Assembly (NCBI GenBank): GCA_036677685.1
Contig: JAVBWA010000012.1
Span: 201,601 to 233,600, forward strand
DNA: 32,000 bases
Reading direction: 5' to 3'
Source of the DNA: Syntrophomonas sp.
GTDB taxonomy: Bacteria; Bacillota; Syntrophomonadia; Syntrophomonadales; Syntrophomonadaceae
Shown: in pieces, positions 11,807 to 28,546 of the stretch
How positions within the stretch are numbered: position 1 is the first letter of the stretch
Layout: every line of letters begins with the position of its first letter
The notes under the pieces: generated by a model
Databases searched by the model: none
What the model was told of the DNA's origin: nothing
What the model saw: only the letters and a program-made list of their open reading frames with translations
Made by a program: the position numbers and the translations under genes

Positions 11807-13153
<1,347 letters not shown>

Positions 13154-13272
13154 TTACTAATTTTATATTGGCGTTTTACTAGGGTATCAAGAAACAATTA
13201 TAAAAATTCTAATAGGGTCATGATTTGAATTTTTGTTTGCTTACTTCGAATGAAAAATCGATAAGAATAGAG

Positions 13273-14433: not shown

Positions 14434-14502
14434 CTCTACCGCCCCTTGTATTTGATTCTAACAACTTGATAAAAATTCATAGCTTTATCACACTTTATCA
14501 AA

Positions 14503-14877
14503 TCAGGATTTTTCCCGGCGCGCAATACTGTCCTTAATAGCCTGGTGCATGGCATCAGCCGCCAGGTTGGAACAATGCATTTTCACCGGGGGTAGTCCGT
14601 CCAACGCTTCGGCAACGGCTCGGTTGGTGATGCGTTCGGCTTCTTCCAGGGTTTTGCCCTTCACCATTTCGGTAACCATGCTGCTGGTGGCAATGGCTGC
14701 GACACAGCCGAAAGTCTTGAATTTTATATCTTCAATGATATCATCCTTGACCTGAATCTCGATATGCATAATATCACCGCAGACCGGATTGCCTACTTCA
14801 CCTACTCCGTCCGCTCTATCCAGGGCTCCAACATTGCGAGGATTCATAAAATGATCCATAACTTTTTGTGAATACAT
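14503..14877 (-). CDS. nifU: Fe-S cluster assembly scaffold NifU/IscU
   Basis: MYSQKVMDHFMNPRNVG...GNPVCGD...KFKTFGCVAAIA...MHCSNLA carries the three conserved IscU cysteines. The ATG at 14877 shares one nt with the upstream nifS TGA (TGATG). Confidence 0.92.
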   Translation of the reverse strand: MYSQKVMDHFMNPRNVGALDRADGVGEVGNPVCGDIMHIEIQVKDDIIEDIKFKTFGCVAAIATSSMVTEMVKGKTLEEAERITNRAVAEALDGLPPVKMHCSNLAADAMHQAIKDSIARREKS

Positions 14878-16049
14878 CACTTGCTTCCCCCTTTGCTATA
14901 CAATGGCGACATTCTTCGCAGATTACCGATTATTTTGGGTAAAACCCCAAGTACAAAATCAACGTCCTCTTCGGTATTATCCTTTCCCAAAGTTAAGCGC
15001 AGCGATCCATGCGCTATCTCATGGGGAAGCCCGATAGCCAGCAGCACATGGGAAGGTTCCAATGAACCCGAGGTGCAGGCTGAGCCGCTGGATGCCATCA
15101 CCCCGTAACTATCCAGCATCAGCAGGATCGATTCCCCTTCCACGAATTCAAAGCATACGCTGACGCTTCCCGGGACCCGGTTTTGCAGATCGCCGGTGGT
15201 AATGGTATGCGGAATCTGCTCCAGGATTCCCTCGCGAAGTTTTCCGGCCAGTTTGTTTAAATGCCCGGCTATTTCGCTCATGCGGCTTTGGGCCAGTTCA
15301 GCGGCCTGTCCGAACCCTACAATACCGGGAATGTTTTCCGTACCGGCTCTCATTTTGTTCTCCTGGGAACCGCCGTGCAACAGGTTGCCAATTTTGGTGC
15401 CTTTTTTGATAAACAGACAGCCGACTCCTTTGGGACCGTACAGCTTATGGCTGGAGGCTGAAAGCATATCAATGCCCATGCTGTTAACATCGATGGCAAT
15501 CTTACCAGCCGTTTGCACCGCATCGGTATGAAAAGCCGCGCCAGCCTGGTGGGCTATGGCCGCCAATTCCGCAATGGGCTGAATGGTCCCTATTTCATTA
15601 TTAGCATGCATAATGGTAACCAGGGTAGTGTCAGGCTGCATAGCCTGTTTGAGAACCTCCGGCTCCACTGATCCCAAAGAATTGACCGGCAAAACGGTAA
15701 TATCAAAGCCATTTTTCCGGAGAAACTCACTGGTATCCAGTACGGCGTGATGTTCAACCGCCGATGTAATTAAATGCTTGCCTTTGTGGGTATTGCTGAG
15801 CATATAGGAAACAATGGCTTGATTATCGGCCTCGGTGCCGCCGCTGGTAAAAAATATTTCTCCGGCTTTGGCATTGATCAAGTCTGCAACTTGATCCCGG
15901 GCTTTTTCCAAGGCCTTTCTGGCCTCCCGTCCCTTGGCGTGCACGCTGGAAGGATTACCAAATATATCGTTATAGTAGGGTATCATGGCGTCAAAAACCT
16001 TCGGGTCAACCGGAGTGGTTGCGCTGTGATCCAAATATATTTCCCGCAT
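14877..16049 (-). CDS. nifS: Cysteine desulfurase, NifS/IscS family
   Basis: MREIYLDHSATTPVDPKVFDAM..., SSHKLYGPKG, SSGSACTSGSLEPSHVL. It starts 6 nt after the rrf2 stop, with RBS AGAGGTGA. Confidence 0.92.
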   Translation of the reverse strand: MREIYLDHSATTPVDPKVFDAMIPYYNDIFGNPSSVHAKGREARKALEKARDQVADLINAKAGEIFFTSGGTEADNQAIVSYMLSNTHKGKHLITSAVEHHAVLDTSEFLRKNGFDITVLPVNSLGSVEPEVLKQAMQPDTTLVTIMHANNEIGTIQPIAELAAIAHQAGAAFHTDAVQTAGKIAIDVNSMGIDMLSASSHKLYGPKGVGCLFIKKGTKIGNLLHGGSQENKMRAGTENIPGIVGFGQAAELAQSRMSEIAGHLNKLAGKLREGILEQIPHTITTGDLQNRVPGSVSVCFEFVEGESILLMLDSYGVMASSGSACTSGSLEPSHVLLAIGLPHEIAHGSLRLTLGKDNTEEDVDFVLGVLPKIIGNLRRMSPLYSKGGSK

Positions 16050-16055
16050 TGTTCT

Positions 16056-16523
16056 TCACCTCTTATCATTATTGTCTTGCTTAGATATCGTTACAGGGCT
16101 TTGCTCCCCTGCCGCAGATCCCTTTACTAAATCTTCCAGTGTATACGAATCCAAGACCTCGGAAATTGAGTCCCGCAAACGCGACCATACCTGCCGGGTC
16201 ACACAGTACTCGGCCCTGTTGCAGTCATCCGGGTTTAGCTCGCTCACGCATTCCACCGGGGCAATTGGCCCTTCAAGAGTGCGAACCACATCCCCAACCG
16301 TTATTTTGGCGGCATTTCGGCCCAGAATATAACCTCCCTGAGATCCGCGCACACTCTTAACCAGCCCGGCTTGTTTTAAAGGAGTCAGCAATTGTTCTAG
16401 GTACCTTCCAGATAAATTCTGACGGTCCGCAATAGTGTTAATTGCCACCGGCCCCATTTCCTGTTTTTGGGCAATATCAATCATAGCTCGCAGTCCATAT
16501 CTGCCTTTAGTTGACAACCTCAT
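16056..16523 (-). CDS. Rrf2-family transcriptional regulator (IscR/CymR-like)
   Basis: MRLSTKGRYGLRAMIDIA... winged-helix N-terminus. It has a cysteine set (C-x7-C-x5-C: PVECVSELNPDDCNRAEYC) compatible with Fe-S ligation. Confidence 0.9.
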   Translation of the reverse strand: MRLSTKGRYGLRAMIDIAQKQEMGPVAINTIADRQNLSGRYLEQLLTPLKQAGLVKSVRGSQGGYILGRNAAKITVGDVVRTLEGPIAPVECVSELNPDDCNRAEYCVTRQVWSRLRDSISEVLDSYTLEDLVKGSAAGEQSPVTISKQDNNDKR

Positions 16524-16572
16524 TCAATCATCCCTTCTCCCTGCCAAACTCAATACTATAGAACCCCCGCAG

Positions 16573-17493
16573 CTATGAAGCCAGGTAAATCATAGCCTCC
16601 AGAGCTCTGGCCGCTTTTTGCCTGATCTCCTCGGGAACCGTAACTATTGTTTGCTTTTGCTCAATGGAATACAGTATTTTATCCAGGGTTATACTTTTCA
16701 TATTGGGGCATATCAATTCTTCGGCAGCCAGGATCAGGTTGACTTCAGGACGTGCCTTAAGAATCGGATGGAAGATCCCCTTCTCAGTTCCTATTATAAA
16801 TTGTTTGTCTTCGGATTTGGCAACATAGTCCAAAATCCCGGCAGTACTGCCGGCATAATGAGCTTCGGCCAGAATCTCAGGCTTGCATTCCGGATGAACC
16901 AGAACTTGAGCCTTGGGAAATTGTTGCTTGAGATTTTTTATACTATCTAAAGCTACATGATCATGAATCGGGCAAAAGGAGGGGTAAGCTTCCAGGTTCC
17001 GGTCCAGTTTCTTGGCCACATTGGCGGCCAGGTTCTGATCAGGAACAAAGAACACTTCCCGGTCCGGCGGCAGTTTGCGTATTATTTTTTCCGCATTCGA
17101 TGATGTACAGCACACGTCACTTACCGCTTTAACCTCAGCGGGTGTATTCACATAGGTAACAACAATGCAATCGGGATGTGCTTCCCGGTACTTGACAACC
17201 TGTTCGGCAGTTATGCTGTTGGCCATGGGACAGGTAGCCGCCGGTTCCGGGGAAAGCACGGTGCGTCCCGGGCAAAGAATGGCGGCCGTTTCAGCCATAA
17301 AATCGACTCCCGCCACAAGAATTGTGGCGCTGCTCGAATTCCGGGCGGCCAAGGCCATCGCATAAGAGTCTCCTACAAAATCGGCAATATCCTGAATCTC
17401 ATTCCGTTGGTAATAATGGGCGATAATGTATATATCATCCCGTTTTTTTCTATCCAATATATCCAGGCTGATGGAGCTTTCACGCTGGTTCAT
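16573..17493 (-). CDS. nadA: Quinolinate synthase
   Basis: IIAHYYQRNEIQDIADFVGDSYAMA..., VAGVDFMAETAAIL, CPMA, CCTSSNA: typical NadA motifs. 306 aa. Confidence 0.92.
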   Translation of the reverse strand: MNQRESSISLDILDRKKRDDIYIIAHYYQRNEIQDIADFVGDSYAMALAARNSSSATILVAGVDFMAETAAILCPGRTVLSPEPAATCPMANSITAEQVVKYREAHPDCIVVTYVNTPAEVKAVSDVCCTSSNAEKIIRKLPPDREVFFVPDQNLAANVAKKLDRNLEAYPSFCPIHDHVALDSIKNLKQQFPKAQVLVHPECKPEILAEAHYAGSTAGILDYVAKSEDKQFIIGTEKGIFHPILKARPEVNLILAAEELICPNMKSITLDKILYSIEQKQTIVTVPEEIRQKAARALEAMIYLAS

Positions 17494-17593
17494 TGGTTCA
17501 CTTCCCTTGTTCGACTTTGACTAATTTAAAATAAATCTGGGATCAATATATCATATACCCTATAGTTTTACTAGTTGTATCTTAAAACATTTT

Positions 17594-18388
17594 TCAGTCC
17601 ATTACTATTTTTTCCGGATGAGTATAAATACTGAAGCACTTGCCACGGGCAAAACCTACCACGCAAAGCTCCAGTTCTTCAGCCAATTCCAAGGTCAACT
17701 CGGTCGGAGCGGCCCGTGACAAAATTACTGGTATGCTGCCGCGGGTGGCCTTGATTAAAATTTCCGAAGCCACCCGGCCGCTCAAAAGCAGGCACTTATT
17801 AGATATTGGCAGATCATTCAAAAACGCATATCCCAACACTTTATCAACAGCGTTGTGTCTTCCGATATCCTCATAATGAATAATTATTCCCGATTCGTCA
17901 GCCAGAGCCGCACTGTGCACCCCTCCGGTCAAGTGAAAAGATTTCGCCCTTTGCTCCAGTTCGGCCATCAAAACCTGAATTTGATCGAACGGAAGCTGCC
18001 AATCGGATTTTACCGGCTGCAGTTGGCGGGCATCATTAATAAAATAAAGGCCGGCGCGGCCTTTGCCGCAGCAACTGGCAACATGCCTCCGCAAAAAATT
18101 ATCGGTTTGCGCAATGGGTTCATAGGTCTCAATCCAAAGCAGGCCATCCTCTTCGCGAAGCCGGATGTCTTCGATCTGCGAGCGGGCCTGGAGCAGTCCT
18201 TCACTGAGCAGAAACCCAACAGTAAGCTCTTTTAACCCTCCCGGAGAGCAGATTAAGGTTGCCAGTTCATTATGATTGAGAAAAACCGTTAAAGGCTTTT
18301 CCGTGACAACCGATACCTCCTTTTTCTCAATACTTTTTCCATCGTACATTAGTATTTCCCGGTTTACATAAAGCGGCCAGCCTGACAA
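17594..18388 (-). CDS. fdhD: Formate dehydrogenase accessory sulfurtransferase FdhD
   Basis: GGVHSAAL and EDIGRHNAVDKVLG motifs. TTG start with GGAAGGAGG 8 nt upstream; an ATG 13 codons in is an alternative. Confidence 0.85.
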   Translation of the reverse strand: MSGWPLYVNREILMYDGKSIEKKEVSVVTEKPLTVFLNHNELATLICSPGGLKELTVGFLLSEGLLQARSQIEDIRLREEDGLLWIETYEPIAQTDNFLRRHVASCCGKGRAGLYFINDARQLQPVKSDWQLPFDQIQVLMAELEQRAKSFHLTGGVHSAALADESGIIIHYEDIGRHNAVDKVLGYAFLNDLPISNKCLLLSGRVASEILIKATRGSIPVILSRAAPTELTLELAEELELCVVGFARGKCFSIYTHPEKIVMD

Positions 18389-18413
18389 TTTATCGGCCTC
18401 CTTCCATCAAAAA

Positions 18414-19361
18414 TTACTCTATGTGCCATCTCCCGTCACCCGGATTGCACAACCTGGTCAAATCATATGGTGTTTCTTGATATACGTGGTAATTCAGCCA
18501 GTTGGCAAACATCAAATTCGCATGTCCGCGCCACCTGACCAACGGTGTTCCGGATGAATCATCATCCGGGTAATAATTAACGGGCACTGCTATATCCAGT
18601 CCTTTGGCAATATCACGTTCGTACTCCGCTTTCAGGGTAAGCGGATCGTATTCGGAATGCCCGGTAACAAAAATCTGACGGCAGTCCTGGTTGACCACAA
18701 TATAGACACCGGCCTCCTCGGATTCCGATAATATTTCCAGCCGCGCAACCTTTTCTATATCTCCTCTGCGTACTTCCGAATGGCGGGAGTGGGGAGCGTA
18801 AAACTCATCGTCAAATCCTCTGAGCAGCGGTACATTTTGTTTAAGTACCCGGTGGGTAAAAATGCCAAACATTTTTTCATCCAACGGATACTTGGGCACA
18901 CCGTAATGGTAGTACAGTCCTGCTTGAGCGGCCACACAGATATGCAGGGTAGCCCAAACATGCTTTTTGGTCCATTCCAAAACTTCCGACAGTTCTTCCC
19001 AGTAAGTCCATTCTTCATAATCAAGCTGTTCAACGGGTGCCCCGGTTATAATCATGCCGTCAAATTTCTGTTCTTTGATCTGAGAAAAAGTCGTGTAAAA
19101 ATTCTGCAAGTGCTCTTCCGCAGTATTTTTGGATTCATGGCTTTCCATATGCAGCAGGATTATCTCCACCTGCAGGGGAGTGTTGGACAGAAGTCTTAAT
19201 AATTGAGTTTCGGTTACGATCTTTTGCGGCATCAAATTCAAAATGACAATTCGCAAAGGGCGTATATCCTGATGCACAGCCCTTTTCTCTTTCATTACAA
19301 AGATATTCTCGCCCTGGAGTATAGCACTGGCCGGGAGATTATCCGGTATAATAATAGGCAT
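18414..19361 (-). CDS. metA: Homoserine O-acyltransferase (MetA family)
   Basis: [23 protein letters not shown]...[23 protein letters not shown]...; the catalytic Cys lies in [10 protein letters not shown]. Full length, 315 aa. Confidence 0.92.
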
Positions 19362-19482
19362 ATTCTAATACTCCCCTCAAAAATTTGTTTGTTTATCTAT
19401 CTTTATCAATGCATATAAATAATATTTATATCTGGTTCGCATTCATTTCTCGTCCATTGATAAGATACCTTTCATCCCATAT

Positions 19483-19611
19483 TTAAAAATTCCAATTGAC
19501 TATCCTCTTTATCGTGCCTCCCCCGATCACCCGGTCACCCTGGTAAAAAACCGCCGCCTGCCCGGGTGTCACCGCTCTTTGAGGATAATCAAAATCAACC
19601 CTGGCCTCATC
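19483..19611 (-). pseudogene. C-terminal 42-codon remnant of tRNA 2-thiouridylase MnmA
   Basis: The minus-strand frame reads [42 protein letters not shown], which is the conserved MnmA C-terminus (PQRAxTPGQxxVFY...GGG.I). An in-frame TAG lies immediately upstream, so nothing else of the gene is left. Confidence 0.65.
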
Positions 19612-19661
19612 CTAAAAAGAATTTTAGTATCAAGTGAATTATCTATACTATTTTTATAGGC

Positions 19662-19690
19662 ATTATAGGGTATTTAGAACTGAATTTCAA
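19662..19690 (-). promoter_or_regulatory. Sigma-70-type promoter for metA (TTGAAA-17-TATAAT)
   Basis: Minus strand: TTGAAA (19690-19685), a 17-nt spacer, TATAAT (19667-19662). This is about 300 nt upstream of the metA ATG. The TAGGGTAT motif overlaps the -10. Confidence 0.55.
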
Positions 19691-19749
19691 TCATTTTGGA
19701 GATAAAGGCAAAATTGCTGGCCCTATCCCCTACTAGAGTCACAAATATT

Positions 19750-19944
19750 TTATCCTTGCGGCTCTTGGAACAATACAGTTGAAAGATATCTTTCCCCGGT
19801 ATCGGGCAGCAATACCACGATATTTTTTCCTGCATGCTCCGGCCGTTGGGCCAGTTGAGTGGCGGCATAAACAGCGGCTCCCGAAGAGATCCCCACCAAT
19901 AAACCTTCCGTTTGAGAGAGCAGCCGGAAAGTATCAAAAGCCTC
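19750..19944 (-). pseudogene. C-terminal 64-codon remnant of a second cysteine synthase (CysK/CysM paralog)
   Basis: The minus-strand frame reads [64 protein letters not shown]. It aligns residue-for-residue with the end of the intact CysK ([61 protein letters not shown]). A TAA lies 2 codons upstream. By eye the DNA matches at roughly two-thirds of positions, so this is a decayed paralog and not a recent duplication. Confidence 0.75.
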
Positions 19945-20123
19945 GCTTTAAAGCATTAACATTGAAAAGGCGAGGCGTCTGGATAATAAAATAAGGCAAT
20001 TTTGATGAACTGTTCTTCTGTCAAAGCTATTTGTAGCCCAATGAATCTGGTAGCCAGCCTCTTTTGCCGATAAAATCCTTATAAATTTTAATTTGATTCG
20101 CCTGGAGAAATCCCTGTCAAAGG

Positions 20124-21053
20124 CTACTGCTGAAACAATTCAGTGGAAAGGTATCTTTCTCCCGTATCAGGCAGTAATACAACAATGGTTTTCCCATGAT
20201 TTTCGGGCTTTTTGGCTATTTGTGAAGCCGCATAGGCGGCTGCTCCTGATGATATGCCCACCAGAAGCCCTTCAGTCCTGGCCAGTAGCCTCGCAGTCTG
20301 AAATGCATCTTCGTTTTTTACTTTAAATACTTCATCTAAAATTGACCGATTCAAGACTTCCGGGATGAAATTTGCGCCTATGCCCTCAATCTTGTGCGGC
20401 CCTGCCTTCCCACCTGAAAGCAATGGTGAATCATAGGGTTCTACCGCAATTATTTTTACCTCCGGCTTTTTCGCTTTAAGAACCTCTCCTATGCCGGTGA
20501 TGGTCCCACCCGTTCCTACCCCGGCCACAAATATGTCTACCTGGCCTGCAGTATCCCGCCAGATTTCCTGAGCCGTGGTTTCCCTATGGGCTGCCGGGTT
20601 GGCAGGATTTTTAAATTGCTGAGGTATAAAGGAATTGGGTGTACTGGCAGCCAGTTCATCCGCAACCCGCAGGGCGCCCGCCATCCCTTCCGTTCCCGGA
20701 GTCAAAACTAGTTCCGCGCCTAGAGCCTTCAGCAGGTTGCGACGTTCCAGGCTAAAGGTTTCCGGCATGGTTAGGATTAGCCGGTAACCTTTTGCTGCGG
20801 CTACAAAGGCCAGCGCAATACCCGTATTCCCACTGGTAGGCTCGATTATAACCGAGTCTTTATTGATCAGGCCTTTTGCTTCCGCATCTTTGATCATGGC
20901 ATAGCCAATCCGGTCCTTGGCACTGCCGGCCGGGTTAAAGTATTCAAGTTTGCCCAGCAACCTTGCTTTCACCTGCTGATTTAAAGCAAAATTGGACAAT
21001 TCCAACATTGGAGTATTCCCGATAAGTTCAGTAAGATTTGATACAATTCCCAC
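20124..21053 (-). CDS. cysK: Cysteine synthase A (O-acetylserine sulfhydrylase)
   Basis: IGNTPMLEL..., PLP-Lys region [32 protein letters not shown] start with GGAGGG 6 nt upstream. Confidence 0.93.
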
Positions 21054-21109
21054 TTAAATCCCTCCGTTTTCTTATTTATAAACGTCTATCCTATTTCATC
21101 CTCCTGAAT

Positions 21110-21166
21110 TCAAAGCCAGTCGAGCATAGCGCGCAATCCATAACGGCCTTTCGTGGACATCTTCAT
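21110..21166 (-). pseudogene. 18-codon N-terminal remnant of an Rrf2-family regulator upstream of cysK
   Basis: The minus strand reads ATGAAGATGTCCACGAAAGGCCGTTATGGATTGCGCGCTATGCTCGACTGGCTTTGA, giving MKMSTKGRYGLRAMLDWL*. This matches the invariant Rrf2 N-terminus (compare MRLSTKGRYGLRAMIDIA at 16523). The rest of the gene is absent. Confidence 0.55.
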
Positions 21167-21320
21167 AAACCCGGTATCTCCAAATAGTTTTCCTATATGA
21201 ATACTAGTATATTATGACCACAAATGCAACATTATTACTGTAACAGCAGCCTTGTCATAGCTTTAATTATATTTTATAATTCCTATATAAATACTGTATA
21301 TATGAAAGGTTTTTGATTTG

Positions 21321-21770
21321 ATGATGAACGAAAAGGGGCATGTTCTGGCTGTTAATATCTCCGAAAAAAGAGGGGAAAAGAAGCATAATATCAATGAAGC
21401 TTACATTAAAGCCGACTGGGGTATTGAAGTTGATGCCCATAGCGGTGAATGGCACCGCCAGGTCAGCTTGCTGTCGCTTTCCAGTGTGGAAAAGATGCGT
21501 GCATTGGGAGCAGTCATTGATTACGGCGATTTCGCTGAAAATCTTACCGTTGAAGGAATTGATGTGGCTGCCCTTCCGCTGGGCACCCGCCTGCAAGTTG
21601 GAGAAGTCCGGATGGAAGTAACCCAAATCGGCAAAGAATGCCACAATAAAGCCTGTGCTATCAAAAAGCAAGTTGGCACCTGTGTTATGCCTATCGAAGG
21701 CATATTTACCCGGATTCTCAGTTCGGGCTGGGTAAGAGTAGGCGATACAATCGAAGTAATAGAACAATAG
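21321..21770 (+). CDS. MOSC-domain protein (small YiiM-like molybdenum-cofactor-sulfurase C-terminal domain)
   Basis: GHVLAVNISEKRGEKKHNINEAYIKADWGIEVDAHSG...RQVSLLS...GDFAENLTVEGID...LPLGTRLQVGEVRMEVTQIGKECH is a MOSC beta-barrel pattern. The 178-aa minus-strand ORF across it is antisense. Confidence 0.85.
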   Translation: MMNEKGHVLAVNISEKRGEKKHNINEAYIKADWGIEVDAHSGEWHRQVSLLSLSSVEKMRALGAVIDYGDFAENLTVEGIDVAALPLGTRLQVGEVRMEVTQIGKECHNKACAIKKQVGTCVMPIEGIFTRILSSGWVRVGDTIEVIEQ

Positions 21771-21900
21771 TAATTCAAATGTTGATTGAAAGGGATTCAG
21801 CATCTTAAAACAGTCAACCCAATGGCAATGGATAACAAAAAGCGGTTCATAAGCAATCAGTTGGCTCCCTGCCTGTAATTATGAAAGTTACGAACACCTC

Positions 21901-21941
21901 AAGCAGGTTCTCAACCTAATAAGAACCTGCTTTCATTTTTT
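21901..21941 (+). terminator. Rho-independent terminator after the MOSC gene
   Basis: AAGCAGGTTC-tcaacctaataa-GAACCTGCTT followed by TCATTTTTTC. Confidence 0.75.
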
Positions 21942-22125
21942 CTGGGCGACTTCAGTCATAATGCAAAAGCATTTCGGGTGAGCCTGTATTTTTGACCCGG
22001 CCGTTTTCTGAAATAACCACAATATCGCCGGCTATATACAGAAGACAAACAATGTGATATAGCAAAGATTTCCCGGCTAATTTCCTGCCCCCCTACAGAC
22101 CCTTAAAGGTGGTTATAATGATTAA

Positions 22126-22458
22126 TTATAAAGTTATGACCTGATCTATGCCGGCACCGCCCAAAACAGCGTAGAGATTGGGGAAACAGCCGATAGCGGC
22201 ACCATCCACCAATTTGTCGTCAATTCCCCTTTCAATGGTACACATATCACACCCCATTAAAACGGTACCGTACTTTTCGTGGATCTCCTGGAGTCTATCC
22301 CCGGTGCTGCTGCCTTTGGTCAACAGGAAGGTGTTGTCAAAGAAAAACATCATCCCGGCCACTTCAACTCCGTGACGTTCTTCCAGCATTTGCGGAATAA
22401 TCATTTTATCCAGTATCCTTTGCGCATTATTTGTGGAGAAAATATAGGCAACTCTCAT
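22126..22458 (-). CDS. DsrE/DsrF-like sulfur-relay family protein (last gene of the Cys-pair operon)
   Basis: MRVAYIFSTNNAQRILDKMIIPQMLEERHGVEVAGMMFFFDNTFLL...LMGCDMCTIERGI has DsrE-like topology and a C-x2-C-x3-RG segment. I chose the ATG at 22458 (AAGGAGAGG upstream) over the track's longer ORF, which would overlap the ATPase gene. Confidence 0.75.
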   Translation of the reverse strand: MRVAYIFSTNNAQRILDKMIIPQMLEERHGVEVAGMMFFFDNTFLLTKGSSTGDRLQEIHEKYGTVLMGCDMCTIERGIDDKLVDGAAIGCFPNLYAVLGGAGIDQVITL

Positions 22459-22480
22459 TTCAACCTCTCCTTTATTTTTA

Positions 22481-23374
22481 TTATTGGGCAACTCTGCCTT
22501 TATCAACTTTGGTATATCTGTTGTTCATCCGGTTATAAGCATCGGTAAAACTGGCCTGCCTGTCATAGTCAGCAACCTTTTCGCTAAAATCATCTGACAG
22601 CTCAAAGTCAACAACTTTTTCCTGAAAAGCCTGACGTACTAGCTTTGTCAGTTCCGCAACGTAGGCTTTAAAGCCTTCACTTTGCCTGTCCCGCGGACGG
22701 TCAAGATCAATATAAACGTCTTTTACTATCTGGCCCTTATTCCCGGACATGACTATAACCCGGTCACTCAGATAAACCGATTCATTTACATCATGGGTGA
22801 CCATAACCACAGTAGTTTTGGCTCCCTCTACCAAAGCTGCCAGTTCTTCCTGTAAAAGCTCCCGCATTTGAAAATCTATAGCTCCCAGCGGTTCATCCAA
22901 CAGCAGAATTTCCGGGCGGCTGGCTAAAGCCCTGACTACCGCTACTCTCTGCTGCATACCCCCGGAAAGCTGTACGGGATACTTGTTTTCGCTGCCTCGT
23001 AAATGTGATATATCCAACAGCTCCTGCAGGCGATCTATTTGTTCCTTATGAGCGAACTTTTTGACACGCAGGGAATATAGAATGTTGTCTTTCACTGTCA
23101 TCCAGGGGAAAAGAGCATAATTTTGAAAAACAAAACCCCGGTCAGGCCCGGGTTCTACTACCTTATTGCCGGCCAAAATTATTTCTCCCGCATCGGGATG
23201 CAAAAAGCCGCCCAATATGGTCAACAGGGTAGTCTTACCGCACCCGGATGGTCCCAGAAGCGAAACATACTGACCTCTTTCTACGGTAAAGGACATGTTT
23301 TCCAGGACTATGTGCGCGGCTTTTTTCTTCTGGGTAAATGTTTTGGTTATATCTTTAACTTCCAGCAAAGCCAT
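22481..23374 (-). CDS. ABC transporter ATP-binding protein (NitT/TauT = SsuB/TauB-like)
   Basis: Walker A GPSGCGKTT, FQNYALFPWMTV, signature LSGGMQQRVAVVRAL, Walker B LLLDEP. It has a roughly 60-aa C-terminal extension. Its start overlaps the permease gene by 20 nt. Confidence 0.92.
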   Translation of the reverse strand: MALLEVKDITKTFTQKKKAAHIVLENMSFTVERGQYVSLLGPSGCGKTTLLTILGGFLHPDAGEIILAGNKVVEPGPDRGFVFQNYALFPWMTVKDNILYSLRVKKFAHKEQIDRLQELLDISHLRGSENKYPVQLSGGMQQRVAVVRALASRPEILLLDEPLGAIDFQMRELLQEELAALVEGAKTTVVMVTHDVNESVYLSDRVIVMSGNKGQIVKDVYIDLDRPRDRQSEGFKAYVAELTKLVRQAFQEKVVDFELSDDFSEKVADYDRQASFTDAYNRMNNRYTKVDKGRVAQ

Positions 23375-24188
23375 CTTTAAATCTCCATGAAGTTAGTTTT
23401 TCCTCTATGGTTAAAAAGCCTTTATCAATAACAAACCCTACTAATCCCGACATAAACATTAAAGCGTAAAGCTGCGCCGTCTCCAGCCGCACCTGGGCTT
23501 CCACCATCAAAAAACCGAATCCGGCACTGGTAGCAATAAACTCCGCACAAATAACTGACATCCACCCGGCACCCATAGCCAAACGGCAACCGGTCAATAT
23601 GCTGGGCAAAGCCCCCGGCACCACAATATCGCGAATAATATGAGGCAAAGAAGCCCCCATACTGCGAGCCGCATTATAATAGTTGGGATCAATCCCGTAT
23701 ACTCCGGCAATAGTGTTGATAGCAAGAGGAAAAACCGCACTCATGGCAATCAGAAAAACAGTGGGACCGTCTCCCAGGCCAAACCAAATAATGGACAAGG
23801 GCACCCATGCCATAATAGGAACCTGACGCACCGAATTTATTACCGGGGAAAGCGCCTGCATGGCCGTCTGGGAATAACCCATTAAAAGTCCTAAGGGGAT
23901 GCCGATGACAAATGCATATACGAAACCTATAAACACTCTTTTTAAAGTCAAAGCCAAATTTGACATAATTACAGGGTCCACCCATGCTGTAAAAAATTCT
24001 TTGGCTGTGTCTTTAAAATAAGGCAACAGTAACGTATTTTGAATGCAATTGGCAGCAAAATGCCAGGCAAATACCAGGATAATTACAATAATCATGGTAT
24101 AACAGGTGCCTCGATACTTATCTAAAATATCGCCCGGAGTTAATTTGGTATTTCTATCGGCTGGAATTGTATTCCCATTTCTCTCCAT
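23355..24188 (-). CDS. ABC transporter permease (SsuC/TauC-like, BPD_transp_1)
   Basis: Six hydrophobic segments and an EAA-like loop (YNAARSMGASLPHIIRDIVVPGALPSI). RBS TGAGGT before the ATG at 24188, which overlaps the upstream gene by 49 nt. Confidence 0.9.
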   Translation of the reverse strand: MERNGNTIPADRNTKLTPGDILDKYRGTCYTMIIVIILVFAWHFAANCIQNTLLLPYFKDTAKEFFTAWVDPVIMSNLALTLKRVFIGFVYAFVIGIPLGLLMGYSQTAMQALSPVINSVRQVPIMAWVPLSIIWFGLGDGPTVFLIAMSAVFPLAINTIAGVYGIDPNYYNAARSMGASLPHIIRDIVVPGALPSILTGCRLAMGAGWMSVICAEFIATSAGFGFLMVEAQVRLETAQLYALMFMSGLVGFVIDKGFLTIEEKLTSWRFKDGFAGS

Positions 24189-24934
24189 ATTTTTACCTCA
24201 TTACTGCTATTCTCTATGGATAAATTTTTTTTCAGTTCTTTCATAAGTATCCCTGTGGTATTTATTTCACCGACCGCCTGGTTATAGGCCTTTATAAAGC
24301 TTTCCAACTCAGTGCTGCCAAGCAAATTTTCATGCACAACCAGCACAGAGCTTGGATACTCGGAAAGCAAAGGTAAACGATAACCACTAATTTTTAATGC
24401 TCCCAAAATATCCAGGACTATTCCTTCTACTGCATCTCTTTCCAGGGCATACGGTAAACCTGCAGGAAGCATAGGCTTCATTACAATACTATTGTCTAAA
24501 TTGGACCAAACCAATTTTTTCTGAATTTCCCGCAGATTCATGTAGCCTACAGTTCGCGGAATAGTATCCTGATTCGTGACTAGAACATTGGCGTTTACCA
24601 CTACCGGACCTAAAACCTGATAAGGCTGACCACTGGCAATCAGCTTATCGGCACTGTCTGGGCAAAGCACTGCCAGATCAAAATTGCCCGCGGACAGTGC
24701 CAGCTCAGTTTGGCTGTTACAGCAATCCTGCAGTTGTTGATAACTCATATCGACAACCTCCAGGGCTGAACTTCCCTCTCCCGCCAGGTATTTGACAAGC
24801 AAACCGGCAGCGTCATCATTACACGCAATCCGTAATCCACTCGGTTCTACGCGATCAAGCATCATGTTCAATCCTAAAAAGATACAAACGATAAGGATCA
24901 GGCCTGCCGGCAGCAGGATTCTTTTACGGTTCAT
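24140..24934 (-). CDS. Membrane-anchored periplasmic-binding-protein-like paralog (unknown specificity)
   Basis: N-terminal anchor MNRKRILLPAGLILIVCIFLGL. The segments LRIACNDDAAG...LQDCCNSQTELALSAGNFDLAVL parallel INMGYYNCDHMTAA...EAMSAGKMDVGYAG of the neighbouring SsuA/NMT1-type binding protein. ATG at 24934 with AGAAGGA upstream. Confidence 0.65.
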   Translation of the reverse strand: MNRKRILLPAGLILIVCIFLGLNMMLDRVEPSGLRIACNDDAAGLLVKYLAGEGSSALEVVDMSYQQLQDCCNSQTELALSAGNFDLAVLCPDSADKLIASGQPYQVLGPVVVNANVLVTNQDTIPRTVGYMNLREIQKKLVWSNLDNSIVMKPMLPAGLPYALERDAVEGIVLDILGALKISGYRLPLLSEYPSSVLVVHENLLGSTELESFIKAYNQAVGEINTTGILMKELKKNLSIENSSNEVKIWREMGIQFQPIEIPN

Positions 24935-24964
24935 CAACAGTCCTTCTGTGCAATTATGCAGCTA

Positions 24965-26143
24965 TTAACTTTTGGCCGTAATGTTATCAACTTCCATAGC
25001 CTTGGTTTTCCAATCTTCAAAACTCATCCCCAGCGGGAATACCGGATCTACTTCTTCTTTTATGAAGGTTTGAAAATCTTTGGCGCCACAAGCGTCAAAA
25101 TAGGAAGTGTCAACATAGTCTTCGACATCGACAGTATTAACATCATTTTGTACGCCATACTTCTGCATTACTTCCAACTGGTTCTTCAGTTCATCCATTT
25201 TCAGATCCCAGGATATCGTACGTCCTTCTTCATTGGTCTTCTTCCAAATGGTCATTAAAGCAACTTCAAGAGGAACATTGTAGTTTTTGGCAAATATTTC
25301 TGCAGCTTTGTACGGGTGATTATACATGTATTGAACCGACAAGGTATGTGCCAATAAAACCCTTTTGGCTAAATCCGGATGGGCTTGGGCGAAATTGGTA
25401 TGCATGGCTACCTTGCAGCAGGTACCTTGTTTACCATCCCGCACGGTATTTTGCCTTATCACCACCCAGCCGGTATCCTCGTATTCGGCCATGGAGCCCC
25501 ACGGATCACAACATATATAAGCATCCAGCTTACCGGCTTTAAGCGCAAAATATTCATCCTGATCGCTCATATTGAAGTTCTGGTACTTGGTAATATCAGC
25601 CGGAATGTCTAATTGGTCTGCCCATTCCGCCCAGTTGATACTATTGGTCTCAGGATCTGTTCCAAAGGATACTTTCTTGCCTACTAAATCTGCCGCGGTT
25701 TTAATCTCCTTGCTGGCTATCAAATATTCCGATCCCCCGGTATGGTTTTGGGCGGCAATGAACAGAGGTGTGCCTTTAGGAACTGCCCGCAGGGTGGTGG
25801 TCCAACCCGCGTAGCCGACATCCATTTTCCCGGCTGACATAGCTTCAGGTACATTACCATTGCCGGTTAAATTAATTTTCAGCCCCAATGCTTCATAAAT
25901 TCCGGCATCCTTGCCGATACAAGCAGCGGTCATATGATCACAGTTATAATAGCCCATATTAATGGTATAATTTGCGTCTTCATCACTTAATGGTTGAAGA
26001 TTATAAGTTTCTTTCAATTCCTCGGCCAGGCTTTTCTCCGTTTTCTGGGCTTGCTGGGAGGTTTGTTTGGCACTGCAGCCGCACAAAGCAAGTAACCCCA
26101 TCATTAAAATAGCTATGAGAATATACAACTTTGCATTTTTCAT
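24965..26143 (-). CDS. ABC substrate-binding lipoprotein, NMT1/SsuA/TauA-like
   Basis: Lipobox LLALCGCS. NMT1-like core (AMSAGKMDVGYAGWTTTLRAV, FIAAQNHTGGSEYLIA, GKKVSFG). Two vicinal Cys pairs: YICCDPWG and GTCCKVAMH. Confidence 0.9.
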   Translation of the reverse strand: MKNAKLYILIAILMMGLLALCGCSAKQTSQQAQKTEKSLAEELKETYNLQPLSDEDANYTINMGYYNCDHMTAACIGKDAGIYEALGLKINLTGNGNVPEAMSAGKMDVGYAGWTTTLRAVPKGTPLFIAAQNHTGGSEYLIASKEIKTAADLVGKKVSFGTDPETNSINWAEWADQLDIPADITKYQNFNMSDQDEYFALKAGKLDAYICCDPWGSMAEYEDTGWVVIRQNTVRDGKQGTCCKVAMHTNFAQAHPDLAKRVLLAHTLSVQYMYNHPYKAAEIFAKNYNVPLEVALMTIWKKTNEEGRTISWDLKMDELKNQLEVMQKYGVQNDVNTVDVEDYVDTSYFDACGAKDFQTFIKEEVDPVFPLGMSFEDWKTKAMEVDNITAKS

Positions 26144-26178
26144 GCTACATACTCCTCCAATCCCTTTTACTTAAAAAA

Positions 26179-26640
26179 CTAGCAGCAATCTTCCATGCCT
26201 TCCCCGAAAAGATTTACGAACTTTCCTTTTTCTAAACGATAAATAGCGTAACCCACATTCACCCCCTTGGAGCCGGATATTATCAATTCAACCGGGGCCT
26301 TATCATCAATATCCCGCCATTCGATGCGGTAATTTTCTGCCGGCGCCGGTGTCGGCTCAGAAATAACAACTGTCCCGGCTTCTTCCCATATTGCTATCAT
26401 TTTGTTGGCGTCTGCACTATCCTTATAAATAACAATTAAATCTTCCTCCCCATCATTATTAATATCATTAACTCCGGTAAGAAGAGGCTGCTTGTCTTTA
26501 TAAGCATTTAAATAGTATTCAAATAGCTTGTGGCTGGTTTCTATTGTTTTAACGCTATCTTCTTTCCGGTCTTTACCGCCACAGCCTGTAATGCACAGCA
26601 GAGCCAGCAGAAGCAAAATCAATCTTTTCTTCTTAGGCAT
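26179..26640 (-). CDS. Small lipoprotein ending in Cys-Cys-COOH
   Basis: MPKKKRLILLLLALLCITGCGG lipobox. I chose the ATG at 26640 (AGAGGG upstream), which overlaps the upstream permease stop by 8 nt. There is an FG-GAP/EF-hand-like DINNDGEEDL segment. The last residues are GEGMEDCC followed by TAG. Confidence 0.75.
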   Translation of the reverse strand: MPKKKRLILLLLALLCITGCGGKDRKEDSVKTIETSHKLFEYYLNAYKDKQPLLTGVNDINNDGEEDLIVIYKDSADANKMIAIWEEAGTVVISEPTPAPAENYRIEWRDIDDKAPVELIISGSKGVNVGYAIYRLEKGKFVNLFGEGMEDCC

Positions 26641-27748
26641 TTTTAACCCTCTGACCCAATTCGGCCAACCTTTCGCGGCATATTGGCCACCAAGCCGTAA
26701 TACCCATGGCAATGACGATCAGCGAACAAGCATATTCCAACCAGACCGGAACAGCCAGGGACATCTTATTGGCCAAATCCATACTATTCCGGGCATTGCT
26801 TAAATCAAAAACCGGAGTAAAGCCCGGCATTAAAAGACTATTGGTAATATAGCCAACTATCACACTGAGGACTACCACCGTCACCGTATATATAACTACC
26901 GTTCTTTTACCAATAAGTTTGTAAATACTTATTAATTCAGGCAAATTGGTCGCTACCCCCGAAAGCAGAAATGTAACAGCTACTCCCGGTGCTGCTCCTG
27001 CAGCAATAAGTGCTGCAATAAAAGGAATATGTCCAACTGCACAAACGTACATAACCGCACTTAAGATTACAATTCCAAACAAAGAAATAAAAGCAGGACT
27101 GCTTAAATAATCCTGTATAAAGGATACGGGAATAATCGTAAGCAAAAGTGCCGCAAATAATATCCCCACCAGAACATAGCGGCTTACCTGCAAGCCCAGA
27201 CTGCGTACGCTCCAATCCAGTCCGCTGCAGATCCTTTTATGCCAGGGAGTTTTAACCGCAGTAAGAGTATTTATTGCTGATTCCGCAGGTGAATTTATCA
27301 TAGCTTCTGCCATAGCAGCCGCCATTGGTGATACCAGCTCTTCCTTTCCCCATCTGTTGCCTATAACTCCAATAATGATCGGGAGTATAAAACCGGTAAT
27401 AACATAGATAATCGTCAATTCCGGTCCCAGAAGAGCAATAGCGAGTAAAACAGCCGCAGGATTTATTATCGGTGTAGCAACCAAAAATGCCAACGTAGGT
27501 CCTAAATAAGCACCCGAGTAATAAAGGCTCAAAGCTAAGGGCACCACTCCACAACTGCAAATAGGCAAAAGCATTCCCGATATGGTAGCTTTCGCCAGCG
27601 ATGATAATTTGGTATTACCCAGCGATTTTTGCAAAAATTCCGGGCGCAGCACTATATGTAAAAATCCGCAAAGGATAAAACTAAATACCAGCCAAAATGA
27701 ACTTACATTTAGTAATTGCCAGAAGAAAAGCAGGAATTCTTTAATCAT
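26633..27748 (-). CDS. Polytopic permease of the ArsP/DUF318 (PF03773-like) family
   Basis: About 10 hydrophobic helices, with the family-typical LPICSCGVVPLALSL and VCAVGHIPFIAALIAAG motifs. The ATG at 27748 overlaps the stop of the upstream thioredoxin-fold gene (AATGATTAA). Confidence 0.85.
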   Translation of the reverse strand: MIKEFLLFFWQLLNVSSFWLVFSFILCGFLHIVLRPEFLQKSLGNTKLSSLAKATISGMLLPICSCGVVPLALSLYYSGAYLGPTLAFLVATPIINPAAVLLAIALLGPELTIIYVITGFILPIIIGVIGNRWGKEELVSPMAAAMAEAMINSPAESAINTLTAVKTPWHKRICSGLDWSVRSLGLQVSRYVLVGILFAALLLTIIPVSFIQDYLSSPAFISLFGIVILSAVMYVCAVGHIPFIAALIAAGAAPGVAVTFLLSGVATNLPELISIYKLIGKRTVVIYTVTVVVLSVIVGYITNSLLMPGFTPVFDLSNARNSMDLANKMSLAVPVWLEYACSLIVIAMGITAWWPICRERLAELGQRVKNA

Positions 27749-28004
27749 TGGCTTTATCCAGAGCAACCTTAACTGCCCCTTCAATTACCCTCCTGCTCAA
27801 TTCATCAAAACGTTCTTTTTCATTAATAATCAAAGTTCCCCGGTTAACCGGCCCATATTTCGGCAGATAATCAAAATCCTTGCCCATGTAGTATATTTTC
27901 AAGTCTATTTGTTCGGGATGTCTAACGGCTAAATCCCTTAAAACATCTCCATACCCGTCACAACAAGAGCAAGTATTAATGAATTCCACCTTGACCTTTT
28001 CCAC
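27741..28004 (-). CDS. Small thioredoxin-fold protein (redox-active-disulfide-protein-2-like) with CSCC motif
   Basis: VEKVKVEFINTCSCCDGYGDVLRDLAVRHPEQIDLKIYYMG...GPVNRGTLIINEK. Its size, its beta-alpha-beta start with Cys directly after strand 1, and its pairing with an ArsP-type permease are typical of that family. GTG start with GAGGGAGAG upstream. Confidence 0.75.
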   Translation of the reverse strand: MEKVKVEFINTCSCCDGYGDVLRDLAVRHPEQIDLKIYYMGKDFDYLPKYGPVNRGTLIINEKERFDELSRRVIEGAVKVALDKAND

Positions 28005-28070
28005 TCTCTTCTCTCCCTCTTTCTTATTTATTTCTATACTTAATATTACTTTTTTTTATCTATTATTTAA

Positions 28071-28100
28071 ATTATAATCGAATTATGTAAATAGCGTCAA
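28071..28100 (-). promoter_or_regulatory. Candidate promoter of the eight-gene operon (TTGACG-18-TATAAT)
   Basis: Minus strand: TTGACG (28100-28095), an 18-nt spacer, TATAAT (28076-28071). This is about 65 nt upstream of the GTG at 28004. Confidence 0.45.
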
Positions 28101-28111
28101 TTGATTAACGT

Positions 28112-28134
28112 AATCGATATTATAGATATCGATT
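28112..28134. promoter_or_regulatory. Perfect 9-5-9 palindrome AATCGATAT-tatag-ATATCGATT in the divergent control region
   Basis: Read directly. It lies 12 bp upstream of the minus-strand -35. Its right arm overlaps a plus-strand -35 candidate (TTGATT 28133-28138, 16-nt spacer, TATAAT 28155-28160). Confidence 0.5.
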
Positions 28135-28324
28135 GATTTATATGTAATTCATATTATAATATTATTTAATATTTTTTCTTTTACGCTGTATGGCATTTAG
28201 ATCCTGTTCGCCGATTAAAAGACGGGCGCTGATTGAAATAAACTAAATCGGGGCAAAGTAAACTAATCAATAATTATGGGCAATATATGTTTAAAATCAT
28301 TTTGAAAGGTGATGATCCGGAATT

Positions 28325-28546
28325 ATGCGTGAAAAAGTTGAAGCTGTACTTGGTAACATTCGTCCGGCACTGCAGCGTGATGGTGGTGATGTGGAACTGG
28401 TTGAGGTCAATGATCAGGGAGTTGTTAAAGTTCGTTTGAAAGGAGCCTGCGGCGGCTGTCCAATGGCCTCAATGACTCTTAAAAACGGTATTGAAAGAGT
28501 TCTTAGAGAATCGATTCCAGAGATTAAGGAAGTTGTATCCGTTTAA
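28325..28546 (+). CDS. nfu: NifU C-terminal-domain (Nfu-type) Fe-S carrier protein
   Basis: MREKVEAVLGNIRPALQRDGGDVELVEV...VKVRLKGACGGCPMASMTLKNGIERVL is a canonical Nfu domain with CxxC. Confidence 0.9.
   Translation: MREKVEAVLGNIRPALQRDGGDVELVEVNDQGVVKVRLKGACGGCPMASMTLKNGIERVLRESIPEIKEVVSV

Follow-up and report, generated by a model that had tools for sequence, protein, structure and literature searches.

The eight genes that lie between positions 22126 and 28004 of a 32,000-nucleotide stretch of Syntrophomonas sp. DNA (contig JAVBWA010000012.1; the whole stretch is hereafter called the window) are almost certainly a locus of the type named SAO, for Selenocysteine-Assisted Organometallic (Haft & Gwadz, bioRxiv 10.1101/2022.07.06.499078; J Bacteriol 205:e0025922). 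SAO is a puzzling gene set conserved in anaerobes, C. difficile and C. botulinum among them, in which an importer and an exporter, both lined with Cys or selenocysteine (Sec), occur together. No new kind of system is seen in the window, which documents instead a natural eight-gene form, free of selenium and of the MerB-like lyase SaoL, in a syntrophic Syntrophomonas.

The open reading frame (ORF) listing and a coordinate script placed the eight genes on the minus strand in the order saoT-E-C-X-B-P-A-D (Table 1), with junctions, from saoT to saoD, of -8, -8, +35, +30, -49, -20, and +22 nt. These coordinates match exactly the eight tightly packed genes described in an initial annotation of the window. 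A clear Shine-Dalgarno sequence precedes seven of the eight start codons, the exception being that of saoE, which overlaps the stop codon of saoT.

Identity was tested with the NCBIfam equivalog models, which carry curated cut-offs and include the SAO set NF040727-NF040736. All eight proteins scored above the cut-offs of their dedicated models, with E-values from 2.5e-37 to 3.2e-152: SaoT (NF040730, 126.5 bits versus a cut-off of 65), SaoE (NF040736, 497.8 versus 325), SaoC (NF040734, 169.4 versus 80), SaoX (NF040735, 506.4 versus 300), SaoB (NF040727, 248.3 versus 140), SaoP (NF040733, 378.1 versus 295), SaoA (NF040729, 379.8 versus 360), and SaoD (NF040732, 181.7 versus 169). Above the Pfam thresholds, the only matches were to generic domains, namely ArsP_1, NMT1 (together with NMT1_2), BPD_transp_1, and ABC_tran. 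Proteins at least 90% identical to those of the window are already named SaoE, SaoA, and SaoC [Syntrophomonas sp.] by NCBI, and therefore the locus type has already been recognised in Syntrophomonas by the NCBI pipeline. The nearest species-representative loci, with 77-85% identity in SaoE, are all from metagenome-assembled genomes of Syntrophomonas or Syntrophomonadaceae.

These matches bear out the families and motifs assigned in the initial annotation, including the CSCC motif, the C-terminal CC, and the ArsP/DUF318 permease. The Sao names given there also exist and apply, whereas the expansion given for them, 'selenium-associated operon', is not that of the published name. Seven members had been named, SaoP and SaoA with less certainty; SaoX as a named member and the ninth gene, SaoL, which is absent from the window, had been missed. 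The combination is not a new one: SAO is published in detail and curated by NCBI.

The canonical locus has nine genes, in the order saoTECXLBPAD in C. botulinum and saoDTECXBPAL in C. difficile (CD2361-CD2369), and occurs only in anaerobes, in 52 of 15,511 representative species (10.1101/2022.07.06.499078). According to the same report, Sec occurs in 98% of SaoL, 85% of SaoP, 65% of SaoT, and 60% of SaoB proteins, selenocysteine machinery is present in every SAO species, SaoL is present in 45 of the 52 loci, its occasional absence being acknowledged, and the locus is associated with a double-cubane reductase (10.1101/2022.07.06.499078). The window shares with the canonical form the relative order T-E-C-X-B-P-A, scores above the cut-offs in all eight families, and the characteristic thiols, i.e., CxCC in SaoT, CSC in SaoE, CC-COOH in SaoC, CC pairs in SaoX and SaoB, the gate residue of SaoP, and CxxC plus a further Cys in SaoD. 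It differs in having no SaoL, no Sec, and, within the 32 kb, no nearby double-cubane reductase, and in its host, which is a syntrophic Syntrophomonas and not a Stickland fermenter. The system is thus already published and curated, and the SaoL-less, Sec-free copy is a recognised minority configuration of it, not a new variant.

The conservation of the set was analysed in a comparison sample of 80 loci, one genome per species, onto which the eight window proteins and the C. difficile SaoL were mapped by tblastn (individual loci carry L numbers below). Forty of these loci are complete for the core genes, have flanks of 4 kb or more on either side, and are referred to as well flanked. The same gene set co-occurs in 63 of the 80 loci from other species, and the order T-E-C-X-B-P-A-D recurs in 11 other loci. 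As a set, the eight genes recur in Bacillota, Synergistota, Spirochaetota, Thermodesulfobacteriota (the former Deltaproteobacteria), and Actinomycetota.

An ordinary ATP-binding cassette (ABC) importer for sulfonate, taurine, or nitrate, standing beside unrelated small genes, would share the family-level likeness seen to TauC/SsuC, TauB/SsuB/NtrCD, and SsuA. SAO does resemble SsuABC and TauABC in being a type I ABC importer with a binding protein of the NMT1/SsuA fold class and a related permease and ATPase. However, the permease, the ATPase, and SaoX scored far below the cut-offs of those families and above the dedicated Sao cut-offs; SaoX, for example, gave 98.7 bits versus 163.5 for SsuA_fam and 30.3 versus 304 for TauA. 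SAO also differs in having a second, unrelated binding protein and Cys clusters in both the binding proteins and the permease gate, and in the absence of desulfonating enzymes; none of the genes annotated in the window is ssuD, ssuE, or tauD. In addition, the Cys/Sec signature positions are conserved, and the eight genes co-occur in the phyla listed above. The co-occurrence and the model scores refute the ordinary importer, to which we attach hardly any probability, and agree with the initial annotation, which had recognised no characterised sulfonate, taurine, or nitrate system in the set.

No in-frame TGA codon was found in any of the eight sao genes by a script run over all of them, and every position that is Sec in other loci is Cys in the window, i.e., C12-S-C14-C15 of SaoT, C72 of SaoB, and C214 of SaoP. 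Conversely, in-frame TGA codons were observed at the Cys-aligned positions of SaoT, SaoB, and SaoP in other loci, as the initial annotation had anticipated for the orthologs. SaoL (NF040728) is absent from the 32-kb window in the tblastn search with the C. difficile protein (E <= 1e-3), and neither a double-cubane reductase (NF040772) nor selenocysteine machinery (SelD/SelA/SelB) was found within it. Among the 40 well-flanked loci, SaoL lies nearby in 30, and 14 are Sec-free in SaoT, SaoC, SaoX, SaoB, and SaoP. Six are both Sec-free and SaoL-less, namely two Syntrophomonadaceae, Thermosyntropha, and three Synergistota. The absence of SaoL is a variant; the SAO membership of the locus stands, and SaoL is not universal. 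A tie between Sec-free status and the loss of SaoL was considered and rejected, the association being weak (6/10 SaoL-less versus 8/30 SaoL-bearing loci, which are not phylogenetically independent).

In L008 (8982-9464) and in the Brachyspira loci L010, L012, L014, L021, and L026, SaoT, SaoB, and SaoP carry Cys whereas SaoL carries TGA; the transport parts thus contain Cys even in organisms capable of Sec insertion. This pattern indicates that the choice between Cys and Sec is made protein by protein and not set by the selenoprotein capacity of the host. Since the window copy has neither SaoL nor Sec, it implies that core transport would depend neither on selenium chemistry nor on the cleavage of a carbon-metal bond at the locus. 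Expression of an all-Cys operon in E. coli avoids the difficulties of Sec insertion, so that the core proteins would be directly accessible to assays of ligand binding and transport.

For the substrate-binding proteins, SaoX matched solved SsuA/NrtA-like structures only at an E-value of about 4e-4 (SsuA, PDB 2x26, E = 4.7e-4), and its C68, C212, C242, and C243 are conserved across the loci. SaoB has a single N-terminal hydrophobic segment (residues 6-24), and its position 72 is encoded by TGA (Sec) in many other loci. The description of SaoB as a paralog of SaoX, made in the initial annotation, is not supported, as no pairwise similarity between the two proteins was detectable (BLASTP E = 0.9). 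Sequence searches of the PDB with SaoB and SaoD gave no match.

For the permease SaoP, the stretch WMSVI[C/U]AEFIA is almost invariant, and the codon for its C/U position is TGA in most loci and Cys (C214) in the window. A gating role for this residue was derived from a structural alignment to Met-163 of MetI (10.1101/2022.07.06.499078). For the ATPase SaoA, the family model spans residues 4-250, and about 47 C-terminal residues (~251-297; 22481-22630) lie beyond it; the saoA-saoD spacing in L009 and L031 suggests that the Syntrophomonas clade has this C-terminal tail in common.

For the small cytosolic proteins, SaoT has no hydrophobic segment, and in other loci its motif carries Sec as UxxC, CxUC, or CxxU. 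In SaoD, C70, C73, and C91 are invariant. The AlphaFold2 (AF2) model of SaoD has a predicted local distance difference test score (pLDDT) of 94.6, and Foldseek matched it to YchN (1jx7_A), DsrE (2hy5_A), and TusD (2d1p_A) with TM-scores of 0.70-0.75 and a probability of 1.0. The match to Pfam DsrE (PF02635) was 16.2 bits, below the threshold of 22.7, and a profile search with PDB sequences for an alignment of the SaoD Cys with the active-site Cys of DsrE/TusD returned spurious matches only. SaoD shares the fold of DsrEFH, TusBCD, and YchN, and differs from them as a single small subunit, without DsrF/H or TusB/C partners, that contains three invariant Cys instead of one active-site Cys. Neither SaoD nor SaoT has signal or transmembrane segments. 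Overall, SaoX and SaoC are predicted to be lipoproteins and SaoB to be membrane-anchored, SaoT, SaoD, and SaoA having no signal sequence, and sets of three invariant Cys are found in SaoB, SaoD, SaoT, and SaoE.

SaoC was described as 'dark matter' without homologs outside the locus (10.1101/2022.07.06.499078). The sequence D59-I-N-N-D63-G-x-E-D-L-I-V-I-Y is conserved in it, and the protein ends in FGEGMEDCC-COOH, an invariant tail that includes C152 and C153. Its AF2 model is all-beta, with a pLDDT of 86 (>90 for the globular part), and the matches among PDB folds were partial only, to beta-propeller blades and repeatedly to the FG-GAP propeller of integrin alpha. At residues 57-112, Pfam FG-GAP_3 matched below threshold (E = 0.011, 16.8 bits versus 26.9), as did FG-GAP. 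An exhaustive profile search with SaoC led to giant proteins that contain 7-24 repeated matches to the same core, and these proteins match Pfam FG-GAP_3 at E-values of 1e-69 to 1e-142. The FG-GAP-related core comprises residues 57-145 and contains a DxNxDGxxD motif. On the strength of the profile matches, the sub-threshold Pfam matches, and the partial propeller fold matches, SaoC is best described as a lipoprotein that probably consists of FG-GAP-like blades and has a Cys-Cys tail.

For SaoE, the score against the model of the SO_0444 Cu/Zn efflux family was 197.9, below its cut-off of 300, whereas Pfam ArsP_1 (PF03773) gave 186.4 bits versus a cut-off of 32.3. The protein contains an internal repeat (residues 13-131 versus 186-303, E = 2e-13), in which LPIC64SC66GVVP is aligned with MYVC236AVGH240IP. 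C64, C66, C236, and H240 are invariant in 30 homologs; C64/C66 and C236/H240 occupy equivalent repeat positions and are presumably central in the protein. SaoE resembles ArsP of Campylobacter jejuni in belonging to the Pfam family ArsP_1, and shares a Cys-x-Cys membrane motif with the SO_0444 Cu/Zn efflux relatives. It differs from both in having an equivalog model of its own, in scoring below the SO_0444 cut-off, and in its coupling or fusion to the CC-tailed SaoC, and the window contains no ars genes (arsR, arsC, acr3, or similar).

In-frame SaoE-SaoC fusions were found in at least four protein clusters (P0079, P0086, P0100, and P0059), both halves scoring above their NCBIfam cut-offs, and at the DNA level in L052 (2722-4230). 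The fusion linker retains the former signal-peptide/lipobox segment after a positively charged loop, and with this topology the SaoC domain would be expected on the outer side of the membrane. In the window, saoE and saoC share an 8-nt overlap. The natural fusions argue that SaoE and SaoC may act together. Neither these fusions nor the FG-GAP relation of SaoC is mentioned in the SAO preprint (10.1101/2022.07.06.499078).

Based on these features, we consider it probable, with some reserve, that the Sao proteins import a thiophilic species, pass it along a cytosolic thiol relay, and export it. The lipoprotein SaoX and the membrane-anchored SaoB would capture the substrate outside the membrane through Cys clusters that include the CC pairs, and would deliver it to the importer SaoP2-SaoA2, in which Cys214 from each permease subunit would form the gate and ATP hydrolysis would drive uptake. 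Cytosolic SaoD, with three Cys, and SaoT, with CSCC, would hold, exchange, or reduce the substrate. The remainder would be expelled by SaoE, the repeats of which place C64, C66, C236, and H240 at equivalent positions, and SaoE would pass the product to the extracytoplasmic SaoC with its flexible CC-COOH tail; SaoC may return the product for another cycle. The import side is supported by the importer-type permease domain (BPD_transp_1), the two binding proteins, and the conserved Cys/Sec gate codon. The export side draws on SaoE, which is closest to the SO_0444 Cu/Zn efflux and ArsP families and in which the CSC motif aligns with C236/H240, and the cytosolic relay on the DsrE/TusD fold of SaoD and on the lack of signal or transmembrane segments in SaoD and SaoT.

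The function of SAO has so far been hypothesised only, a soft metal or metalloid, or an organo-derivative thereof, being the proposed substrate (10.1101/2022.07.06.499078), and a 2026 review states that the roles of the Sao proteins are still in need of investigation. As the initial annotation had also held, no experimental work on the substrate or mechanism was found; the only data found were proteomic and immunoblot detections of the SaoX ortholog in C. difficile, which concern its expression and localisation. That the substrate is a soft metal, a metalloid, or an organo-derivative (Hg-, As-, or Sb-like), rather than sulfur or selenium, is in our judgement a leading possibility that falls slightly short of an even chance. 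It is favoured because the characterised relatives of SaoE export Cu/Zn or trivalent organoarsenicals, because three quarters of the loci bear the MerB-like lyase, because several parts offer three invariant thiolates, and because the outgroup or sister branch of SaoD adjoins metal importers of the AztC/AztD type (10.1101/2022.07.06.499078). ArsP exports methylarsenite (MAs(III)) and roxarsone(III), i.e., trivalent organoarsenicals and not inorganic As(III) (PMC6205960).

Several neighbouring genes recur beside the SAO loci and bear on the nature of the substrate. The 616 flanking ORFs were clustered across the loci, and SaoL was among the recurring genes. The most frequent recurrent neighbours are a double-cubane reductase and its activase, found in 30 loci (16/40 well-flanked), the representatives of which match NF040772 and TIGR00241; both genes lie beside the locus in the close relatives L005, L007, and L008. 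A molybdenum/tungsten-bis-pyranopterin guanine dinucleotide (Mo/W-bisPGD) oxidoreductase of about 700 residues is encoded no more than 6 kb from the sao genes in 16 loci (9/40 well-flanked), which span several phyla; in L009, the closest Syntrophomonas relative with full flanks, its gene lies directly upstream of saoT. The enzyme has no Tat-like N-terminus, and its best NCBIfam matches, to Fdh-alpha, PhsA, and NasC, are all below the cut-offs. At least three sub-clades, 26-36% identical to one another, were distinguished among these enzymes, so that a single orthologous group was rejected and they are regarded as a recurring class only. The association is not mentioned in the SAO paper, and no such enzyme occurs in the window, though fdhD and a MOSC gene are present. 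The family PF11823 ('putative Se/S carrier protein-like'; E = 1.2e-19 for the copy of L050), flanks five SAO loci.

These neighbours enter into the main alternative for the substrate, namely that sulfur or selenium, as persulfide, polysulfide, or selenotrisulfide, is imported and relayed on Cys/Sec to supply cofactors or selenoproteins, SaoE exporting the excess. Vicinal CC pairs are able to hold an S-Se-S bridge, SaoD has the DsrE/TusD sulfur-relay fold, SaoT is thioredoxin-like, and SaoX is remotely SsuA-like; the five PF11823 neighbours, the PhsA/Fdh-like Mo/W-bisPGD enzymes beside 16 loci, and the selenocysteine machinery reported for every SAO species point in the same direction. The genetic context of the window was also taken as support in the initial annotation: metY, two nifS, nifU, an Rrf2 regulator gene, nadA, fdhD, metA, cysK, MOSC, nfu, and an OsmC-like gene are all present, so that the operon lies amid cysK, metA, metY, nifS/nifU, fdhD, MOSC, and nfu. 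However, this context is not kept beside the sao loci of even the nearest relatives: none of these genes adjoins sao in L009 or L031, the closest relatives with full flanks, and any such gene was found in only 2 of the 80 loci. The neighbourhood was therefore dropped as support. In addition, SaoL, found in three quarters of the loci, resembles MerB, a carbon-metal lyase; the characterised relatives of SaoE export Cu/Zn or organoarsenicals; SaoD scores below the Pfam DsrE threshold and has no DsrF/H or TusB/C partners; the conserved set includes no rhodanese, TusA, SelD, or cysteine desulfurase; and there is little obvious reason for a nutrient system to pair an importer with an exporter. We regard chalcogen trafficking as unlikely on this evidence, though with an appreciable share of the probability.

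The same features may also be read as a heavy-metal or organometal resistance island, comparable to mer or ars, in which a toxic compound is deliberately imported, processed, and pumped out purely for detoxification. In mer operons, thiol-lined uptake precedes cytosolic processing, and the proposed passage of a soft metal by thiol pairs from outside, through the membrane, to cytosolic proteins is alike; the C-terminal CC of SaoC recalls the C-terminal Cys pair of MerA. An ArsP-family permease is present here and a MerB-like SaoL in most loci, and the 2026 review groups the Sao proteins with metal and metalloid resistance. However, the window contains no homologs of MerP, MerT, MerA, or MerR and no MerB-like gene, and SAO differs from mer in importing by an ABC transporter, in its dedicated exporter, and in the absence of a metal-sensing regulator. 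No MerR/ArsR-type regulator, MerA, ArsC, or mobile-element gene lies beside the operon or recurs in the 80 loci. The locus is 98% conserved across C. difficile assemblies and has a housekeeping context (10.1101/2022.07.06.499078), in C. difficile the SaoX ortholog was expressed with no metal added, and the strongly reducing double-cubane enzymes and the Mo/W oxidoreductases that recur as neighbours suggest metabolism rather than resistance. Detoxification as the sole purpose is, for these reasons, quite improbable.

As a further alternative, the SAO core may be a thiol-lined import/export shuttle and not an organomercurial pathway, since a Sec-free, lyase-free eight-gene form exists; it would work with an adjacent strong reductase on a redox-cycled metalloid or chalcogen that forms oxyanions (As, Sb, Se, Te, or a thiometallate), and SaoE and SaoC would be one export/recapture module, as the natural fusions suggest. 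If this were true, the partner reductase would be the double-cubane enzyme in some lineages and the Mo/W-bisPGD oxidoreductase in others. We rate this version as improbable, if worth stating.

The explanation preferred here, i.e., SAO identity together with Cys-lined import, relay, and export of a thiophilic substrate, most likely a soft metal or metalloid or an organo-derivative, is as a whole somewhat better than an even proposition. Several points weigh against it. The Cys/Sec clusters would fit a covalent chalcogen relay (persulfide or selenotrisulfide) equally well, and the fold of SaoD, the SsuA-like SaoX, the PF11823 neighbours, and the Mo/W enzymes point to such a relay. No MerR-, ArsR-, or CsoR-type regulator and no classical resistance gene is adjacent in the window or recurrent in the relatives. 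SaoL or a double-cubane reductase may be encoded elsewhere in this genome, as the search covered 32 kb. The substrate, the transport direction, and the hand-offs are all proposed from sequence, the export direction of SaoE is suggested by family resemblance only, and the grouping of the eight genes into one operon is an inference from their spacing and a single conserved promoter. Small additions to the description of SAO are the relation of SaoC to FG-GAP repeats, its natural fusions with SaoE, the internal repeat of SaoE, and the Mo/W-bisPGD neighbours; they provide concrete hypotheses.

For the putative promoter, the sigma-70-like sequence TTGACG-N18-TATAAT, located about 60 nt 5' of the saoT start codon, was the best promoter-like match in the region (11/12 positions). 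TTGACG...TATAAT is kept at the same place in L004, L005, L006, L031, and L065, all of the Syntrophomonas clade, whereas the other upstream DNA is unalignable among the related loci. Within the Syntrophomonas clade, different genes lie upstream of this sequence: L005 and L007 have the double-cubane reductase with its activase, L009 has the Mo/W enzyme, and the window has nfu/OsmC. The sequence would be the putative promoter that drives the sao operon.

An alignment of nine related upstream regions revealed, between the -10 box and the saoT ribosome-binding site, an element of about 22 nt, which in L006 is a perfect palindrome, TTATACA-A-TGTATAA. This element is possibly an operator or a leader; no Rfam family matched it, even at E <= 1. 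Its use as a mark of a regulon was rejected, as the lone second match in the window (21263-21284, upstream of cysK) is weak and 4 of 100 shuffles do as well. Similarly, a perfect 9-bp inverted repeat, AATCGATAT-N5-ATATCGATT (28112-28134), which lies just 5' of the -35 box in the divergent intergenic region between saoT and nfu, was rejected as a conserved operator, being absent from all nine related upstream regions. Rfam searches at the gathering thresholds gave no leader RNA or riboswitch across the whole window, including SAM and T-box, and at E <= 1 there was no match in 27950-28350 and 19300-21400. No tRNA or tRNA-Sec gene lies within the 32-kb window.

Downstream of saoD, which converges with the MOSC gene, a 13-bp hairpin in the space between the two was detected from the sequence and the RNA fold of 21880-22130. 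Its T-run is on the plus-strand side, which makes it a canonical terminator for the MOSC gene; it is likely to be a terminator, and the sao transcript may use it as well.

Table 1. Coordinates of the sao genes, regulatory features, and recurrent neighbouring genes. Positions refer to the window or, where an L number is given, to that comparison locus.
Feature	Coordinates	Strand	Description
saoT	27741-28004	minus	GTG start; 87 aa; cytosolic thioredoxin-like protein, motif C12-S-C14-C15
saoE	26633-27748	minus	371 aa; ArsP/DUF318-family permease, presumed exporter; C64-S-C66 and C236/H240
saoC	26179-26640	minus	153-aa lipoprotein; lipobox ITGC (C20); FG-GAP-like beta core; FGEGMEDCC-COOH tail
saoX	24965-26143	minus	392-aa lipoprotein; NMT1/SsuA-like substrate-binding protein; C68, C75, C211-C212, C242-C243
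saoB	24140-24934	minus	264-aa membrane-anchored substrate-binding protein; C71-C72 and C91
saoP	23355-24188	minus	277-aa ABC importer permease; gate residue C214 within WMSVICAEFIA
saoA	22481-23374	minus	297-aa ABC ATPase
saoD	22126-22458	minus	110-aa DsrE-fold protein; C70-x-x-C73 and C91
Putative sigma-70 promoter	28071-28100	minus	TTGACG-N18-TATAAT
Conserved ~22-nt element	28030-28051	minus	AAGnAATnnnAnrTATAAnTAA; candidate operator or leader
13-bp hairpin	21901-21932		Likely terminator
Mo/W-bisPGD oxidoreductase genes	L009:7459-9525; L013:16489-18597; L027:7569-9710; L057:7376-9490; L061:6693-8768		Also in L060, L072, L078, L079, and others
PF11823 genes	L050:13010-13288; L017:15411-15710; L042:6636-6911; L048:14005-14370; L078:13654-13953		'Putative Se/S carrier protein-like'; about 92-121 aa

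Farther along the minus strand, metY, nifS, nifU, nifS, the Rrf2 regulator gene (CymR/IscR-like), nadA, fdhD, metA, and cysK form a dense run at 11807-21053. The 760-bp gap between metA and cysK is otherwise empty and contains a 49-aa ORF on the minus strand (19750-19899), which is very similar to the C-terminal end of the neighbouring CysK (VGISSGAA...) and appears to be the remnant of a duplicated or rearranged cysK.

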